A stretch of DNA of 64,000 bases from Minisyncoccota bacterium. Its GTDB lineage: Bacteria > Patescibacteriota > Minisyncoccia > Phycocordibacterales > JBAYGS01. The stretch spans positions 89,942 to 153,941 of the forward strand of contig JBAYGS010000001.1 of NCBI GenBank assembly GCA_041666545.1, written 5' to 3'. Under the pieces are notes generated by a model, which saw nothing but the letters and a program-made list of their open reading frames with translations, ran no database searches and was not told where the DNA came from. Both the position numbers and the translations under genes were made by a program. This document shows, piece by piece, positions 17,264 through 49,816 of the stretch (positions within the stretch are counted from its first letter, which is position 1; each line of letters starts with the position of its first letter).

Positions 17264-18409
17264 ATGAGGACCCATCTGGAAATTAAAAACGAAACCGAGG
17301 CTAAATTACTCGCCGAAATTCACAAGCGAACGGATTTTAAAGGTATTAGAATTCAAAATCTTTTAAAATTACCAGACCTGACGCTAAAGACAAACTCACC
17401 AATCCGATTTATTGTCGACAAGGTTGTTGCTTTGCCGCGCTTCAAGGATTTCGATATTGTCTCAATTCCCCAAATTATCAGCGTTAAGAACAACTTTGAT
17501 GTCCTAAATACGCCCAAGGATCACCCGAGCCGACGCGAAAGTGACACCTATTACGCCTCGCCGGATATGGTCTTGCGGACCCAGATGACCGATGTCTGGC
17601 CCTTTTATCTCCGCGAACCTTCAATCGTCAAAAAACTCAACAACGACGGGGAAGCGGGGGCGCTTTGTTTTGGTAAGGTTTATCGCAAGGACGAAATTGA
17701 CCGCAACCATTTTCCGGCCTTCCACCAAATCGACGGCCTTTATTTGTGCAAACGCGAGAAGCGAACCATTACCCAAAAAGATTTAGTTGATGTACTGGTC
17801 GATATCGCCAAAAGTCTCTACGGCGAGAAAGTCGAGTGGAAGGTGATTCCGGATGATTTCCCTTACACGCACCAGAGTGTCGAAATGGACATCATGATGA
17901 ACGGCAATTGGCTGGAGATTCTTGGAGCGGGCCTGGTCCGGGATATTGTTCTCGAGAACTTGGGTGTTGACCCAAAAGTTTACAATGGCTGGGCCTTCGG
18001 CTTCGGCTTGGATCGTTTAGCGATGATTAAAATGGGTATCAATGATATCCGAGTACTTTGGTCTGATGACGAAAGAATTACCCGCCAATTCACCAGTTTG
18101 GATTCGAAATTCAAGGAAGTCAGCAAATACCCGCAAGCCGTTCGCGACATCTCCTTCATTGTTGGCAAAGGCGTCGGCCTCAATAACTACTACGAGATTG
18201 TCCGCGACTGTGGTGGCAATTTGATTGAAGAGGTTAAACTACTCGACACCTATGATGATGAGAAAAAATTCGGCAAGGACAACATCAGCTACACTTTTCG
18301 AGTTGTCTACCGTTCTCCGGAGCGAACCCTGACCAGCAAAGAAATTAACGACATTCACGAACAAATCCGCTCCAAAACTGTCTCTGAATTGTCGGCCAAA
18401 CTCCGCTAG
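17264..18409 (+). CDS. pheS: monomeric (mitochondrial-type) phenylalanyl-tRNA synthetase: PheS catalytic core fused to FDX-ACB anticodon-binding domain
   Basis: Class IIc motifs FGKVYRKDEIDRNHFPAFHQIDG and GWAFGFGLDRLAMI. The C-terminal SKYPQAVRDISFIV...YRSPERTLTSKEIN matches the FDX-ACB (PheT B8-like) domain. Confidence 0.75.
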   Translation: MRTHLEIKNETEAKLLAEIHKRTDFKGIRIQNLLKLPDLTLKTNSPIRFIVDKVVALPRFKDFDIVSIPQIISVKNNFDVLNTPKDHPSRRESDTYYASPDMVLRTQMTDVWPFYLREPSIVKKLNNDGEAGALCFGKVYRKDEIDRNHFPAFHQIDGLYLCKREKRTITQKDLVDVLVDIAKSLYGEKVEWKVIPDDFPYTHQSVEMDIMMNGNWLEILGAGLVRDIVLENLGVDPKVYNGWAFGFGLDRLAMIKMGINDIRVLWSDDERITRQFTSLDSKFKEVSKYPQAVRDISFIVGKGVGLNNYYEIVRDCGGNLIEEVKLLDTYDDEKKFGKDNISYTFRVVYRSPERTLTSKEINDIHEQIRSKTVSELSAKLR

Positions 18410-18420
18410 GCATTAAAAAA

Positions 18421-18443
18421 CCCCGACTTGTCATCGGGGTTTG
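18421..18443. terminator. bidirectional intrinsic terminator
   Basis: ccccga-cttgtca-tcgggg, flanked by A-run and T-run. Confidence 0.6.
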
Positions 18444-18447
18444 AAAT

Positions 18448-18521
18448 TGGCAGCGGCGAGGAGACTTGAACCCCTACGGGCGGTTTTGGAGACCGCTGGC
18501 CTACCATTAGCCGACGCCGCT
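18448..18521 (-). tRNA. tRNA-Trp (anticodon CCA)
   Basis: Hand-folded cloverleaf: acceptor AGCGGCG/CGCCGCU, D-loop AATGGTA, anticodon stem GCGGU/ACCGC with loop CUCCAAA, T-loop TTCAAGT, discriminator G, encoded CCA. Confidence 0.8.
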
Positions 18522-18584
18522 GCAAGGAAGCTACTCTGTGCCAAGGTTATCACAATTAGGAATCATGACAACTTTACAAATTAC

Positions 18585-19355
18585 CTAGTTGTCATTTAAT
18601 TTTTTTGCAGAAAAGCCGAAAATATCTTTGTACCTTTTTTCCCCAAATAGGACTGGGTAAAAATCCTGTGTGGCCTTAATCTCAGTTTTGTTCGAAGGAT
18701 TAAAACCATAGACCTCGCCCTTTTTAAAAACTTTCAAATTCTCAACACCTTTTGTCAGACGGAAGCCCCTCGGTTTTGGGACAGTGGCATAGACTTCGAG
18801 AAATAATTTCTTCTGCTCCGGATTTAGGCCAGATCGATCTAAAATTTTAAAATGCTGAAGTATCAGAAGAATGGCATTTCGAGTATCCTTAAAAGTCTTA
18901 GTGCTTCTGTCTTTGCCAAATTCGAGTCCAATCCCAATTCTCGCGTTTGATATCAGGGCATTTTTTTCGGTTGCCTTCATGTAGAGAACATTTTTTGCAT
19001 TCGTAGCCTTAACAACTTTCATTGTCTCAGCATCAAGTTTGGTGACAATCACGCAGGATTTAAGCTCGCTTTCAGTAGAGTGAACATCTATTACAACATC
19101 GTAGGATTTTATCCTAGGTAACAACTGATGAGCTAAGCGCTCCTCATAAGTGCCATCCTTCCTTCCGGGAAACGACCGGTTAAGGTCAGACTCGATAAAG
19201 CGCTTCCTTTCTTTAACCGCTCGCTCGTTGGCAATCATAAAATCAACCCTACCTTTTGACAGGTCGAGTTCCTTTAAAGAAGCGATCACTCTCTGGCCCA
19301 GGCTTTCTGTGCCATGAGTGCCACCATTAATTAATATTGATGTCAGTTTTTTCAT
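18585..19355 (-). CDS. succinylglutamate desuccinylase/aspartoacylase (AstE/AspA) family zinc deacylase
   Basis: N-terminal INGGTHGTE (the GGxHGNE-type motif) and a conserved downstream His. 256 aa. Confidence 0.55.
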   Translation of the reverse strand: MKKLTSILINGGTHGTESLGQRVIASLKELDLSKGRVDFMIANERAVKERKRFIESDLNRSFPGRKDGTYEERLAHQLLPRIKSYDVVIDVHSTESELKSCVIVTKLDAETMKVVKATNAKNVLYMKATEKNALISNARIGIGLEFGKDRSTKTFKDTRNAILLILQHFKILDRSGLNPEQKKLFLEVYATVPKPRGFRLTKGVENLKVFKKGEVYGFNPSNKTEIKATQDFYPVLFGEKRYKDIFGFSAKKLNDN

Positions 19356-19411
19356 ATGTATAAAAAAGGTTCCTTAAACTAAGTGGTAAAAGGAACCCTG
19401 AATATTTAGGA

Positions 19412-20122
19412 TTAGCAGGCTTCGCCCAAAAACAGAAAGCCGTCACGGGTTTTGCCGTCTCTAATCCGCAAGGAAGTCTGAAACCATCGGTTAACTTCCT
19501 CATCATCAGACTTCGGTATCTCATCGTACAGGCACTGACTGTAGAGGTCATGTGACACGAAGGTTTGCTCATTGAAGCTACCGTTTCGGTCGCTCATGAG
19601 CACCTTTGCAGATTTTCGCCACTCGGCAGGAACAATTGGACTGGCCGGGTTTGCGGAAACCCTTTTGCAAAGTTTCCGCAAAAAACAGAACATGACGGGA
19701 TTTTGGGTGGTAAACCCAATCTTCCGAAGTCCAGACTCTGCGAACAGTGTCTTAACTGTCGCAATACCAACACCGCGAGTCTTGTGTTGTTTCCCAATCA
19801 AAACCCCAAACAGATAGAAGAGATCATGCTCTGAATGAAGATTGGCCGAGGCAAACCCGAGCACATCCGTGTCGGAATAGGCCAAGGCAAGCATGTCTCC
19901 ATCCTGCGTATGCTCCTTCACATCGTCATAAAAGCCCCGGCTTTCAGGACGGCCGAAACTAGATATTCCAGTTCGGTAGAGTTTTTCCAGCAGGGCCTCT
20001 GAGAAATCCTTTGGAGCTCTGCTGAAAGCTAGTTTAGGTTTTGCCAGCACCCCTACGCTGAAACCTCGAAACTTGACTTCTTTTCCACTACCAGCCAAAA
20101 CAAAATCGCTTGGCGTCTTCAT
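19412..20122 (-). CDS. GNAT-fold acyltransferase-like protein
   Basis: GVLIGKQHKTRGVGIATVKTLF resembles the GNAT motif A (R-x-x-G-x-A). 236 aa. First gene downstream of the T-box leader. Confidence 0.4.
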   Translation of the reverse strand: MKTPSDFVLAGSGKEVKFRGFSVGVLAKPKLAFSRAPKDFSEALLEKLYRTGISSFGRPESRGFYDDVKEHTQDGDMLALAYSDTDVLGFASANLHSEHDLFYLFGVLIGKQHKTRGVGIATVKTLFAESGLRKIGFTTQNPVMFCFLRKLCKRVSANPASPIVPAEWRKSAKVLMSDRNGSFNEQTFVSHDLYSQCLYDEIPKSDDEEVNRWFQTSLRIRDGKTRDGFLFLGEAC

Positions 20123-20164
20123 AATTGCTCCTCGATTGACGAAGATTTTAAGGAACTATTGCGG

Positions 20165-20420
20165 CAGTTTCTTGCCCAAAAGCAAGAATCCGCCCTTATA
20201 ACACAATCCAATGATTATGTACTAAGGGCGGATTACCGCGGTGCCACCTTATTTGCAAAAAGGTATTCCTTTCTGCCACTTCGCTGTCTTACGCCACTTC
20301 AGGCAAACAACAGCATTCCTGATAACGGGGGAGTCCGGATTTCCACTATCGCAGAAATCACTTTCGCTACCAACTATCTTACAGTCGGCAGCAAATTTCG
20401 ACCCAGCCCTCGGAAACATT
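20165..20420 (-). promoter_or_regulatory. T-box riboswitch leader (antiterminator bulge UGGC; discriminator-compatible with tRNA-Trp)
   Basis: Minus-strand sequence AAUAAGGUGGCACCGCGGUAAUCCGCCCUU matches the T-box consensus. Antiterminator: A1 AAGG:CCUU, 7-nt bulge UGGCACC, A2 GCGG:CCGC. Competing terminator AAUCCGCCCUUA...UAAGGGCGGAUU plus a U-run. Promoter TTGACA-N18-TAAACT. The Stem I specifier was not resolved. Confidence 0.7.
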
Positions 20421-20531
20421 TCGCCGAGGATCGAAATAAGTTTGTTTAAGTTTACTTGAATCCAACTCTTGGTGTCAACTTGACTTTTGTCTTCCAGATG
20501 ATAAGGTTCGGACAGGAAAGGACAATAACAA

Positions 20532-21902
20532 ATGAAAACGAAAGCCGTTCCGATTACCGAAATTAGTGAAATCCGTCGAATTCTCTGCCCACCAAATCTG
20601 GACCGTTCTGAACTGTTGGCGTCCAGGAGACAAGGGTCTCCTGAGCTAAAAGTCGAACAGGAAGTGCGAGCCATGAAATCTGTCACTTTCCACTGTGGAA
20701 AGTGTAAGGTCAATACGTGTGGCATCGAAAATGATCCTGGTGCCTCTGTCCGCCACTGTCCAGGCTGCAATTCAATCTTGATGCTCTGCCCGGTCTGCCA
20801 CAAGGCAACATCTGGCACGGAAAAATTCAAGATTCTCATCTGCGACAGTTGCCACACAGAGTTTGTCACCGACACAACAGTCCAATCGCTTATCGATATG
20901 GACCGCAAATCTCGACAAGTGGTACTCTCTGGAATCCGGGCGACCAACCGTCTTCACCTGGGAAATTTCCTGGGTGCAATCCGACAGTTCGTCCAGTATT
21001 CAACAGGCGACAACCTGTGTCTCTATTTCATTGCCGATTGGCACACTCTGACGACCTGTCAGGATGCCGCCACCGTTACCGGCAACAGTGTTGAAATCGC
21101 CATGAATTACATCGCCGCAGGACTCGATCCGGAGCGATCAATCATCTACGCGCAGTCCAGTGTTCCAGAAATTGCCGAGCTTGCCCTGTATCTTTCGATG
21201 ATTCAGGACAAAGGTGAACTCGAAGTTCTGCCGACACTCAAGGATCTGCTCCGTGGTGGTGCCAACATGAATCTGGGCCATCTCTCTTACCCGGTCCTCA
21301 TGGCTGCCGACATCCTGGGTCCAAAGGCGACCTTAGTGCCGGTTGGTTCTGATCAGATTCCAAATGTTGAATTGGCGCGTCGTTTGGCGAAGAAGTTCAA
21401 CCGCCGTTTCGGCCAGACCTTCGTGATTCCCGAAATCGGAGAGCAGAAGGTTAAGATCCCGGGCCTCGGTGGCGGTAAAATGGCCAAGTCAGACGAAAGT
21501 TCCTGCATCTTCATTGATGACGCCGCTGAGGTTGTGGCGAAAAAGTATGCCAAGCACGGAGTCACCGACAAGAACAAGGTCAAACGCGACGATTCCGGTG
21601 TTCCCGAAAATTGTGCCTCAATCTATCCGGTCTACCAAGTCCTTCTTGGGGAGGAGTCCTCCTTGCTTCAAGAAGTTGCAAACGGATGTAGGGTCGGTTC
21701 GCGAACCTGCCAGGAGTGCAAGGCTGAACTCGCCAAAATGGTGAACTCAATTCTTGAACCAGTTCGCGTCAAACGCCGCGAACTGGGGGGGAAGAGGGAA
21801 TTCGTCCGTGAAGTCCTGCACTTCGGTGGCTTAAAAGCCCGTGAGATAATTCGGCCGACCCTCGAGCTGGTTCGAGAAAAGCTCGGTATCATCGCGCCTT
21901 AG
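20532..21902 (+). CDS. trpS: tryptophanyl-tRNA synthetase paralog with N-terminal tandem zinc-ribbon extension
   Basis: Core: VVLSGIRATNRLHLGN (HIGH), YPVLMAADIL, VPVGSDQIPNVELARRLAKKFN, KMAKS. The N-terminal 120 aa carry four CxxC pairs (HCGKC/HCPGC, LCPVCH/ICDSCH). A canonical-looking internal start exists at 20898 (MDRKSRQVVLSG). GC-richer than the backbone. Confidence 0.75.
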   Translation: MKTKAVPITEISEIRRILCPPNLDRSELLASRRQGSPELKVEQEVRAMKSVTFHCGKCKVNTCGIENDPGASVRHCPGCNSILMLCPVCHKATSGTEKFKILICDSCHTEFVTDTTVQSLIDMDRKSRQVVLSGIRATNRLHLGNFLGAIRQFVQYSTGDNLCLYFIADWHTLTTCQDAATVTGNSVEIAMNYIAAGLDPERSIIYAQSSVPEIAELALYLSMIQDKGELEVLPTLKDLLRGGANMNLGHLSYPVLMAADILGPKATLVPVGSDQIPNVELARRLAKKFNRRFGQTFVIPEIGEQKVKIPGLGGGKMAKSDESSCIFIDDAAEVVAKKYAKHGVTDKNKVKRDDSGVPENCASIYPVYQVLLGEESSLLQEVANGCRVGSRTCQECKAELAKMVNSILEPVRVKRRELGGKREFVREVLHFGGLKAREIIRPTLELVREKLGIIAP

Positions 21903-47990: not shown

Positions 47991-48279
47991 AACTTTTCCT
48001 TAAGTTAGTTTGCGGCCAATTCTATGCCGTCCGTATCAGAGTCTCGGATGACTCATGGCTTGTCGCTAATTATGATAGAGCGACACGCAAAGAGTTGACC
48101 ACACAGTGACCAACCCGACATCGCCGGCCTTTTCTCTCCGGCGATACCAAATTCCTATAATTCATAAGTAGGGAGCTGGTATCGCTAGAGAGAGTTTTAA
48201 AGATCAATTTTGGCTATTATAGCATAAACGGTGTACTTTGTCAATCATTGGCAGCCCTATCGGATATGCTAATATACAG

Positions 48280-48465
48280 GAAAGCATTGATGCCTAAAAC
48301 AAGGCGGAGCTTGGGGAAGAAAGGGTACAAATACCTGATTAGACCCTCACGGGTGGCCCGTTAAAGCCTAAAAGAGAAATAAGCGAGGTGGTACCGCGGC
48401 GAATCATCGCACGCCCTTGCAAGAACGAAAATCGTTTCGTTTTTGCAAGGGCGTTTTATTTTATA
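48280..48465 (+). promoter_or_regulatory. T-box riboswitch leader upstream of class IIb aaRS
   Basis: AAAUAAGCGAGGUGGUACCGCGG at 48375-48398 matches the T-box consensus (bulge UGGU). Terminator cgcccttgcaa...ttgcaagggcg plus ttttatttt at 48412-48460, 22 nt before the ATG. Confidence 0.65.
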
Positions 48466-48487: not shown

Positions 48488-49816
48488 ATGGAAAGAGCAT
48501 ACATCAAGGACTTAAAAACCAAGGTAGGCGAGGAAGTTACAATCGCCGGTTTTGTCGATATCAGGCGAGATCACGGCAAGCTGATTTTTATGGATTTGCG
48601 AGATGTCACCGGCAAAGTTCAGATGGTAATTTTGCCAAACCATAAGGAGGCGCAAGAGGTGGCAAAGGAATCGCGGCCGGAGTGGGTACTGGAAATCAAG
48701 GGCAAGGTGAACGCCCGGCCCGAGAAAATGATTAACAAGGATGAGCTTAATGGGACAATTGAAATTGAGGCGCTTGAAGTAAAGGTGCTCGGCAAAGCCC
48801 AAGAATTGCCGTTTGAAAAAAATACTGAAGTTAACATCGACACTTATCTCGACAACCTACCTTTCACCTTGCGCAAGGATCGCTCCCGAGCCATCTTCAA
48901 AGTTCAGTCACAAATCATGAAGAGTTTTCGCAATTATTTTATGAGCGAGGGCTTCATTGAATTTCAGGCCCCAAAGCTTATCGGTGACGATGCTGAAGGT
49001 GGAGCCAACTCTTTTGACATTACCTACTTCAAGCATGTGGCCCACTTGGCGCAAAGCCCACAGCTTTACAAACAAATTATGGTGGGAGTTTTTGAGCGAG
49101 TTTTCACTTCCGGCAACGTCTACCGAGCCGAGAAGCACAGTACCACTCGCCACTTAAACGAGTACACCTCGCTCGATATTGAAATGGGCTTCATCAAAGA
49201 CCACACAGATGTGATGCTGACCGAGACTGGCTTCCTCCAAAAATTGGAGGCTGACTTACAGGCCAACTGCGCCGGTGAGTTCGCCACCTTGAAAGCCGAA
49301 ATTCCAAGAGTACCAAAAGAAATTCCGGCTCTGTCTTTGCGAGAGGCCCAGAAATTGATTACCAAGGAGACCGGTAAGGATTGCACCCATGAGCCGGATC
49401 TCGAGCCGGAGCATGAAAGATGGCTCTGTGAATATGCCAAAAAAGAGTTTGGTTCAGATTTTATCTTCGTCACCAATTTCCCGACTGCTAAAAGGCCTTT
49501 TTACACCTATCGAGATGAGAAAGACCCGACCTACACCAAAGGCTTCGACCTTTTGTTCAGGGGAGTGGAAATTACGACCGGTGCCCAGCGAATCCACGAC
49601 TATGACGCTCTGGTTTCTTCGATGAAAGAGAAAGGATTAAATCCGGAGAAATTTGCTTTCTACCTTCAGGCCTTCAAATACGGCATGCCGCCGCACGGTG
49701 GTTTCGGCTTGGGCTTGGAGAGATTGACCCAAAAAATGCTTGGCTTGGACAACGTGAAAGAAGCTACTCTTTTCCCACGAGACCTAAACCGAATTGACGT
49801 CCGATTGTCGGAGTAG
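48488..49816 (+). CDS. aspartyl/asparaginyl-tRNA synthetase, archaeal-type class IIb (Asp vs Asn not resolved)
   Basis: N-terminal OB fold, QSPQLYKQ, FRAE and GGFGLGLERL motifs. 442 aa. Confidence 0.8.
   Translation: MERAYIKDLKTKVGEEVTIAGFVDIRRDHGKLIFMDLRDVTGKVQMVILPNHKEAQEVAKESRPEWVLEIKGKVNARPEKMINKDELNGTIEIEALEVKVLGKAQELPFEKNTEVNIDTYLDNLPFTLRKDRSRAIFKVQSQIMKSFRNYFMSEGFIEFQAPKLIGDDAEGGANSFDITYFKHVAHLAQSPQLYKQIMVGVFERVFTSGNVYRAEKHSTTRHLNEYTSLDIEMGFIKDHTDVMLTETGFLQKLEADLQANCAGEFATLKAEIPRVPKEIPALSLREAQKLITKETGKDCTHEPDLEPEHERWLCEYAKKEFGSDFIFVTNFPTAKRPFYTYRDEKDPTYTKGFDLLFRGVEITTGAQRIHDYDALVSSMKEKGLNPEKFAFYLQAFKYGMPPHGGFGLGLERLTQKMLGLDNVKEATLFPRDLNRIDVRLSE

Follow-up and report, generated by a model that had tools for sequence, protein, structure and literature searches.

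The window analysed here is a stretch of 64,000 nucleotides from the genome of a Minisyncoccota bacterium, and its minus strand carries a T-box leader, i.e., a transcription attenuator that senses tRNA-Trp. This T-box is real. It is followed on the same strand by the gene of a GNAT-fold protein of 236 residues, the gene of a Zn amidohydrolase of the AstE/AspA family and a tRNA-Trp gene, and trpS is encoded divergently. An earlier, sequence-only reading of this region had placed the GNAT-fold protein and the AstE/AspA-family deacylase behind the leader, and this arrangement was confirmed.

The T-box leader and its specifier

The promoter, the leader and its modules are located as follows:

20449..20478, minus strand: sigma-70-like promoter, TTGACA (20478-20473), a spacer of 18 nucleotides and TAAACT (20454-20449); 10/12 matches
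20178..20442, minus strand: complete T-box leader of approx. 265 nt, supported by RF00230, by the class model R2 (see below) and by a folding much better than that of shuffled sequences (z = -8.1)
20396..20436, minus strand: reduced Stem I, UUUCGA / U / CCUCGG, loop CGAAAUGUUU, CCGAGG / GCUGGG / UCGAAA; approx. 90 homologous leaders are alike
20402..20405, minus strand: specifier UGG (20405-20403) and the following purine G20402 in the small internal loop of Stem I; conserved columns and Trp genes downstream
20363..20395, minus strand: extra hairpin between Stem I and Stem II, -19.0 kcal/mol; of variable length and absent in some homologues
20338..20359, minus strand: Stem II, GAUUUC, loop UGCGAUAGUG, GAAAUC; 6/6 pairs covary and the loop UGCGnUAGUG is invariant
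20317..20337, minus strand: Stem IIA (CGG...CCG), F-box CCGUUA (20328-20323) and IIB pseudoknot strand, from the Rfam alignment
20283..20314, minus strand: additional hairpin ahead of Stem III, -14.1 kcal/mol
20255..20276, minus strand: Stem III, from the Rfam alignment and folding
20224..20250, minus strand: antiterminator AAGG[UGGCACC]GCGG-UAAU-CCGC-CCUU with a 7-nt bulge beginning UGGN, from the sequence and the Rfam alignment; -8.4 kcal/mol
20178..20233, minus strand: terminator hairpin (20233-20188) and U-rich tract (20187-20178), -30.2 kcal/mol

The promoter had already been recognized in the sequence-only reading, and TTGACA promoters of a similar kind also precede the homologous leaders. 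Transcription presumably starts near 20442; since the leader begins at about this position, the end coordinate of 20420 given in that reading was too short and left part of Stem I (20436..20396) outside.

A search with the Rfam T-box model RF00230, suggested at that time as a check, returned a match at 20379-20221 of the minus strand with 45.3 bits and an E value of 9.4e-7 over the whole window (8.1e-9 locally); however, the curated cut-off of 93 was not reached. For this reason a default Rfam run is silent on the leader: at the gathering threshold the scan of the window reports tRNA alone, and the T-box emerges when an E-value threshold is used. The low score is a consequence of the strong reduction of Stem I, of which 90 positions are deleted in an alignment that is otherwise excellent from Stem II through the antiterminator, including the F-box CCGUUA, Stem III and the T-box sequence. 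A covariance model of the class (R2), obtained from 39 homologous leaders with the window sequence left out, gave a single match in the window, at 20440-20313 of the minus strand (67.6 bits, E 3e-14). Its alignment puts the GCUGGG of the window on the GUUGGG of the class, with Stem I in register, and the match is more than chance. A decayed or accidental T-box-like sequence with no regulatory role would agree with the sub-threshold Rfam score and with the loss of the Stem I platform; nevertheless, we regard this explanation as extremely improbable in view of the remaining modules, which are all intact and in order, of the leave-one-out E value of 3e-14, and of the strong covariation of a class that precedes a coherent set of Trp genes.

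Building Stem I and finding its specifier, on which the sequence-only reading depended, was achieved: UGG-G lies at 20405-20402 and the helices at both sides covary. The codon is followed by the required purine on the 3' side of the internal loop (GC-UGG-G at 20407-20402). In a MAFFT alignment of 40 non-redundant leaders that was not fitted to the structure (A3), the GGG of the UGG-G columns does not vary, and the U is conserved at 90% or more. The distal part of Stem I is in the window a plain helix of 6 bp with a loop of 10 nt, and in the relatives it mostly ends in a GNRA-like tetraloop. RNAfold pairs the lone 5' U with G20402, leaving the five-base bulge GCUGG. It was also observed that the conserved 5' U-C-C of Stem I is able to pair with the GGG of UGGG, in the window and in all class members; the specifier loop may thus switch between two registers, in one of which the lower helix is lengthened and the codon hidden.

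Other positions for the specifier were considered and rejected. The sequence-only reading had proposed GAUAGUGG, with the codon UGG-A, which is the wrong place and corresponds to the conserved loop of Stem II. The segment GAUAGUGGAAAUCC (20350-20337) consists of this loop and the start of the 3' strand of Stem II, and is found in every member; its UGG at 20345-20343 is the conserved loop/stem junction. The Stem II loop is not the specifier because it is invariant whatever gene stands downstream. The second hairpin, with the terminal loop GUAAGAU, is variable or absent among homologues, and the loops 'UAGAUGG' and 'UAGUUGG' of a few homologues, which resemble Met and Leu specifiers, are actually UGG-G in leaders with the upper hairpin deleted.

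The 3' part of the leader contains the elements that would carry out the decision. In the IIB pseudoknot, GGA at 20319-20317 pairs with UCC at 20332-20330, and compensatory changes support three of the five pairs of this pseudoknot. The bulge UGGC (20246-20243) is complementary to the G73-C-C-A end of tRNA-Trp; together with the UGG specifier, which matches the anticodon CCA, it bears out the tRNA-Trp assignment made in the sequence-only reading. The antiterminator, the competing terminator and the U-run described there were all found on the minus strand, and the terminator re-uses the CCGCCCUU strand, which is the 3' strand of the antiterminator, so that both helices are mutually exclusive. 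A small second hairpin, UUCUUGC-UUUUGG-GCAAGAA, is present at 20169-20188 of the minus strand and overlaps the U tract of the terminator.

A class of homologous leaders and the amino acid that it senses

Relatives of the 236-residue protein led to two seed loci, L004 (Saccharibacteria) and L009 (Adlerbacteria), with leaders plainly homologous to that of the window. A search pattern designed from the Stem II, IIA and F-box region of these three leaders was run over a metagenome collection, and this single scan revealed at least 120 leaders, nearly all with the same architecture. From 5' to 3', Stem I is formed by a lower helix, an unpaired U, an upper helix starting with CC, and a variable loop that is often a GNRA-like tetraloop; these are followed by a strand ending in GG, a six-base internal loop N-Y-U-G-G-G, and the lower helix again. 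Downstream of Stem I a hairpin may or may not be present; next come Stem II, whose loop reads UGCGnUAGUG, then Stem IIA, the F-box and the strand of the IIB pseudoknot. Counting among the matches listed, as is done for all the tallies given below for the class, the UGG-G motif was seen in approx. 90 parsed leaders. Class members from a named genome belong to bacteria of the Candidate Phyla Radiation (CPR).

This structure is well supported by the A3 alignment, in which 95.4% of the proposed pairs are paired versus 76.2% in shuffles (none of 500 shuffles was as high), and once the partners are shifted by one to three columns the pairing falls to at most 57.5%. Compensatory changes occur in 20 of the 27 pairs, and in Stem I they affect 7/7 pairs of the lower helix and 4/6 of the upper one. 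A hairpin and a U-run follow the T-box motif in 96 of the 98 leaders with enough sequence; therefore, the class acts on transcription.

Some variants of the class were also observed. In L049, L125, L126 and L130 the upper hairpin of Stem I is deleted and UGG-G is located in the terminal loop. The upper hairpin is also deleted in L066, and in both L049 and L066 the leader precedes an open reading frame for a small CxxC zinc-finger protein, a gene that we take to be NusA-like from a reading of its sequence and not from a family library, and a further large gene. In L018, L090, L127 and L128 (L119 is incomplete) the loop GUUCGGG replaces GUUGGG, offering UCG or CGG as the codon, and these leaders precede a SerA-like 2-hydroxyacid dehydrogenase with an ACT domain. 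A partial or full tRNA-Pro/tRNA-Ala/tRNA-Pro cluster is present upstream of the Trp T-box, in divergent orientation, in nine loci (L014, L035, L037, L054, L082, L104, L111, L120 and L124), which looks like lineage-specific synteny.

The window has a second T-box, also below threshold (38 bits, E 6.9e-5), at 48278-48421 of the plus strand, with a K-turn, an ultrashort Stem I and a perfect terminator. Its terminal loop AAAACA offers AAC (Asn), its bulge reads UGGU, and it precedes the gene for aspartate--tRNA(Asn) ligase (48488-49816, plus strand; NCBIfam 522 bits). Therefore, this genome uses T-boxes with a reduced Stem I in general.

The first gene could be assigned, with at least 140 residues, for approx. 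75 leaders. These genes encode TrpD-like proteins (10), TrpS (9), TrpB (5), TrpE (5, with TrpG behind it), a ScyB-like tryptophan dehydrogenase (2, with an aminotransferase behind it), BtpA (1), GCS2/amidoligase-like proteins (9), the GNAT family of the window (2) and an AstE-like protein (1); as exceptions, four SerA-like genes are located behind the variant loop GUUCGGG. Given that the genes behind the leaders are mostly tryptophan genes, the specificity of the class for tryptophan is settled by them. The tRNA genes agree with this view, with tRNA-Trp representing 12 of the 57 found across all the loci fetched. The seven tRNA-Trp genes from T-box loci all have G73, and the leaders there read UGGC or UGGU; since the discriminator is the same in each of them, covariation between UGGN and the discriminator of tRNA-Trp was not demonstrable among the T-box loci.

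TyrS-like genes, with a tRNA-synt_1b domain and a TyrRS-type C-terminal domain, were found behind leaders in L081, L099, L116, L121 and L133. The UGG specifier was parsed in the last four, and L081 was not parsable. In L121 the TyrS-like gene holds the slot after TrpB that TrpS has in L035, L054 and L120. These genes could encode a TrpRS derived from TyrRS, or could be a case of cross-regulation.

The genes behind the leader and their linkage to tryptophan

The genes and features that surround the leader in the window are the following:

19412..20122, minus strand: 236-residue protein of an unnamed GNAT-fold family; Shine-Dalgarno sequence GAGGAG at 20133-20128; motif K113-x-x-G116-x-G118
19361..19399, minus strand: hairpin GGGUUCCUU...AAGGAACC(U) followed by six U, between the GNAT stop and the AstE start; -14.6 kcal/mol
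18585..19355, minus strand: 256-residue Zn amidohydrolase of the AstE/AspA family; PF24827 (AstE_AspA_cat) 80.7 bits versus a cut-off of 25, E 1.3e-22
18448..18521, minus strand: tRNA-Trp(CCA), with A1-U72, G73 and an encoded CCA, from Rfam and the sequence
18415..18439, minus strand: intrinsic terminator after the tRNA, CCCCGA...UCGGGG and six U; -15.4 kcal/mol
20532..21902, plus strand: divergent trpS, not behind the leader; NCBIfam trpS equivalog 248 versus 177 bits

The position of the divergent trpS (20532..21902, plus strand) agrees with the sequence-only reading; its description there as a paralog found no support, as the protein passes the trpS equivalog cut-off and a second trpS is not visible. 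This TrpS carries an N-terminal extension of approx. 125 residues (20532-20910, plus strand) with two CxxC...CxxC zinc ribbons, and a stand-alone open reading frame of approx. 85 residues, homologous to the extension, is present in the Trp-linked cluster of L012 (approx. 2240-2500). Further downstream of the tRNA, the gene for PheS (17264-18409, plus strand) encodes 381 residues with a C-terminal FDX-ACB anticodon-binding domain, and this layout is that of the monomeric mitochondrial-type PheRS, not of the bacterial alpha subunit.

A non-coding 236-residue frame would have refuted the sequence-only reading. A word-indexed protein search returned the protein alone, and scanning genomes with this one sequence gave no relatives. 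HMMER, run in full against 1.84 billion cluster representatives, gave 174 matches with E <= 1e-3, of which 29 were at E <= 1e-30, and nearly all the proteins found have 225-245 residues. From these relatives of near-uniform length it follows that the frame is coding and that the family is real and unnamed. The pattern used for finding its loci was designed from an alignment of 13 sequences, one of 50 being too diverse. The AlphaFold model of the protein (pLDDT 96.2, pTM 0.91) has a GNAT fold, and the homologues P0004, P0002 and P0041 exceed the cut-off of PF00583, the Pfam GNAT family. The motif Q/R/K-x-x-G-x-G/A that binds the pyrophosphate of acyl-CoA is present as K113-T-R-G116-V-G118, and is kept in most rows of alignment A1. 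Fold searches returned generic GNAT neighbours alone, without a hint of the substrate.

These neighbours bear on a different role for the switch, in resistance or detoxification. In this case, the GNAT would acetylate a compound that competes with tryptophan at TrpRS (tryptamine, D-Trp or an indolmycin-like analogue, for instance), clean-up by the deacylase would be a separate role, and the T-box would report poor charging of tRNA-Trp from any cause. The fold neighbours do include resistance-type acetyltransferases (tabtoxin resistance, phosphinothricin acetyltransferase, Mpr1 and a putative D-Ala acetyltransferase). The family member P0041 is fused to a decarboxylase of amino acids dependent on pyridoxal phosphate, which would yield an arylalkylamine. 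In both L012 and L013 a pair of trpS paralogues, each having the HIGH and KMSKS motifs, lies beside the GNAT and an AstE-like gene, and duplicated aminoacyl-tRNA synthetase genes are often resistance alleles. On the other hand, resistance leaves unexplained the regular pairing of an acylating enzyme with an amide hydrolase and the swap of the GNAT for an ATP-dependent GCS2-like ligase described below, and in L003 and L004 the GNAT is part of a biosynthetic-looking TrpD-like/BtpA operon; thus, we consider this possibility unlikely. L012 and L013 also carry a protein without a Pfam match (551 residues in L013; the L012 copy is truncated by the locus end).

The 256-residue protein keeps the sequences GGTHGTE, DLNR and DVHST, aligned with the motifs of aspartoacylase; in the ASPA structures the aligned residues are the His/Glu/His ligands of zinc and the Arg that binds the substrate carboxylate. 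It remains below the NCBIfam equivalog cut-offs for aspartoacylase, AstE and DoeB (79.5/180, 25.9/305.65 and 28.3/402.7 bits, respectively).

The linkage of the GNAT family was surveyed in 12 loci, the window and eleven genome loci, from CPR and DPANN genomes that include Paceibacterota, Saccharibacteria, Nealsonbacteria, Adlerbacteria, Minisyncoccus archaeiphilus and a Nanoarchaeota metagenome-assembled genome. The family adjoins trpS in 7/12 loci, tRNA-Trp in 4/12, trpA in 3/12 and trpB in 2/12; it lies inside a TrpD-like/BtpA/NUDIX operon in L003 and L004, and a chorismate-mutase-like/methyltransferase fusion is found nearby in three of the 12. A deacylase is encoded directly 3' of the GNAT in five loci, which is AstE-like in the window, L007 and L013, and of the ArgE/DapE-type M20 in L010 and L011. 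The metagenome leader L028 drives the GNAT family and then an AstE-like protein with 45% identity to that of the window. Behind other leaders of the class, a GCS2/amidoligase-like gene is followed by an AstE-like gene (L055, L063, L089, L106 and L108), an M20 gene (L125), a class-I GATase/peptidase C26 gene (L053 and L094) or a gamma-glutamyl-cyclotransferase-like GGACT gene (L079). An amide-forming enzyme followed by an amide hydrolase thus recurs, judging from gene order, as a target of this T-box class, and the fact that two unrelated amide formers are each followed by one of several unrelated hydrolases is the mark of a conserved two-step chemistry and not of a chance neighbourhood. Far from being peculiar to one genome, the GNAT/deacylase pair recurs as part of a regulon under Trp T-boxes.

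The linkage to trpS and tRNA-Trp genes, and the presence at other loci of an ATP-dependent amidoligase in place of the GNAT, a swap that is reportedly typical of peptide-bond-forming systems, could also point to an aminoacyl-tRNA-dependent transferase, in which the GNAT-fold protein would move Trp from Trp-tRNA-Trp to an acceptor and the hydrolase would trim the product. We find this improbable: the acyl-CoA pyrophosphate-binding motif is conserved, the protein showed no likeness to transferases of the Fem, L/F-transferase or MprF type, and inducing a consumer of Trp-tRNA while Trp-tRNA is scarce would be counter-productive.

The sequence-only reading had described an operon ending in tRNA-Trp. 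This is not supported, as the hairpin with six U stands between the GNAT and AstE genes and the tRNA-Trp gene is otherwise oriented in the relatives, where it is upstream of the T-box, divergent or kilobases distant; co-transcription of tRNA-Trp is for this reason not conserved. The hairpin at 19399-19361 may be a partial internal terminator or a 3' stabiliser of the mRNA. It could be thought that the main target of the switch is the terminal tRNA-Trp gene, with the enzymes as passengers, considering that a search of the stretch from the AstE-like gene to tRNA-Trp found neither a sigma-70-like promoter nor a terminator and that a clean terminator follows the tRNA. Nevertheless, the intervening hairpin, the arrangement of the tRNA-Trp gene in the relatives and the positive feedback by uncharged tRNA that would result make this explanation very improbable.

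Our proposal, which we hold to be fairly probable, is that a Trp-specific T-box attenuator controls at least the GNAT gene, and that the acylation/deacylation couple belongs to a Trp-starvation regulon of CPR bacteria and serves the supply or recovery of L-Trp. The architecture of the RNA and its conservation, the specificity of the class for Trp, the folds and motifs of the GNAT and AstE proteins and the linkage of the genes have been shown; for the response to tRNA, the substrates and the direction of flux, we infer the following. RNA polymerase would start near 20442, and the anticodon CCA of tRNA-Trp would pair with UGG (20405-20403) in the internal loop of the reduced Stem I. With uncharged tRNA, the G73-CCA end would pair with UGGC (20246-20243) and stabilise the weak antiterminator, blocking the terminator (20233-20188 and the U tract), and transcription would go on; charged tRNA-Trp would be unable to contact UGGC and transcription would stop. 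The AstE-like deacylase and tRNA-Trp would also be under the switch if read-through passes the intergenic hairpin. The GNAT would N-acylate an amino compound of tryptophan metabolism (Trp, a precursor or an analogue) from acyl-CoA, and the Zn amidohydrolase would take the N-acyl group off an amino acid. Since both activities would be switched on when tRNA-Trp is uncharged, the net role of the couple is probably to supply or recover usable L-Trp. The idea of a module for N-acyl-amino acids, put forward in the sequence-only reading, is compatible with these data and was strengthened by comparative genomics.

Several observations weigh against this proposal. Regarding the RNA, the leader does not reach the gathering score of RF00230 (45.3 bits versus 93), the U tract 3' of the terminator is interrupted (UCUUGCUUUU), and Stem I lacks both the K-turn and the distal AG bulge/loop platform on which the tRNA elbow stacks. 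The K-turn and this platform are regarded as important for a fast co-transcriptional capture of the tRNA, and function by analogy is not guaranteed. Regarding the genes, the hairpin with six U at 19399-19361 may leave the deacylase and the tRNA outside the control of the switch; the 236-residue protein of the window has no Pfam or NCBIfam match at E <= 0.1, and its family has no known substrate. A T-box of the class was not found within 4 kb of the GNAT, by a search with the class model, in most of the other GNAT loci (L003, L005-L008 and L010-L013). Among the first genes behind the leaders, approx. 20 are unassigned singletons and four are TyrS-like. Finally, an N-acylating enzyme that is induced during Trp starvation is not obviously useful.

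Significance and comparison with known systems

A full-text literature search found no paper linking T-boxes with CPR, Patescibacteria or Saccharibacteria, and none on an acetyltransferase/deacylase pair controlled by a T-box. We tentatively suggest that these leaders define an undescribed Trp-starvation regulon of CPR bacteria, based on transcriptional T-boxes with a minimal Stem I, and that its most distinctive target, the route in which a compound is acylated (by the GNAT or the GCS2-like enzyme) and then deacylated (by the AstE-like, M20, C26 or GGACT enzyme), is a new form of tryptophan acquisition or recycling. If true, organisms believed to rely on a host for amino acids would acquire or recycle Trp, e.g., via a protected precursor or via N-acyl- or gamma-glutamyl-Trp. 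The class shows that T-box control is common among CPR bacteria, of a type that goes unreported at the curated Rfam threshold. Moreover, a transcriptional T-box working without the elbow platform of Stem I would challenge the need for this contact in fast co-transcriptional capture, and the class offers more than 100 natural variants for testing it. The switch ties the two uncharacterised enzymes that make and break amides to the response to tryptophan shortage. It can be used as a functional label that assigns the unnamed GNAT family, the GCS2-like ligases and the AstE-like deacylases to tryptophan homeostasis, and this label is a testable entry to how ultra-small symbionts obtain an expensive amino acid.

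Regarding the enzymes, the pairing of a GNAT N-acyltransferase with an amidohydrolase of the AstE/AspA family is also found in EctA/DoeB. NAT8L and aspartoacylase are another pair that acylates and deacylates an amino acid, and the D-to-L amino-acid route of Geobacillus uses a GNAT succinyltransferase and an M20 desuccinylase. The best sequence match in the PDB was EctA for the GNAT profile and aspartoacylase for the AstE-like protein, with DoeB weaker; however, the similarity of the window enzymes to these pairs is very low (E approx. 1e-5 to 1e-3), and there is no racemase near the window genes. Nothing in the EctA/DoeB, NAT8L/aspartoacylase and Geobacillus systems corresponds to the T-box control and the Trp-linked setting of the window genes.

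With regard to the RNA, the leader shares with the Class I transcriptional T-boxes of Firmicutes (tyrS, glyQS and trpS of B. subtilis; RF00230) the order of the modules, i.e., a Stem I with a codon and a purine, Stem II, the IIA/B pseudoknot, the F-box, Stem III and the UGGN bulge, as well as the mutually exclusive antiterminator and terminator and the logic based on uncharged tRNA. In contrast, its Stem I is reduced to two short helices around an internal loop of 1 x 6 nt, without the K-turn, the S-turn of the specifier loop, the AG bulge and the distal loop platform; its host is a CPR bacterium, and its targets are not an aminoacyl-tRNA synthetase, a classical trp gene or a transporter.

T-boxes, Trp T-boxes and variants with a truncated Stem I were already known (PMC7778990; PMC11297988). 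The actinobacterial ileS T-boxes, such as that of M. tuberculosis ileS (TBDB 'class II'; PMC7778990, PMC11297988), have a truncated Stem I without the elbow platform, as the leader described here. A specifier in the terminal loop is even present in L049, L125, L126, L130 and the second T-box of the window (48278-48421). However, the ileS T-boxes are translational and sequester the Shine-Dalgarno sequence, whereas our leader and 96/98 of the class use an intrinsic terminator.

Closer to the window in the amino acid sensed, the anti-TRAP operon rtpA-ycbK of B. subtilis has a Trp-specific T-box, with a UGG specifier, before accessory genes of Trp supply that do not encode a synthetase. Likewise, the trpX T-box of Streptococcus suis (PMC9382623) has a UGG specifier and precedes an accessory gene of Trp supply instead of trpS, as here. 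The targets of rtpA-ycbK and trpX are a regulator or a transporter, whereas those of the window are an acyltransferase and a deacylase.

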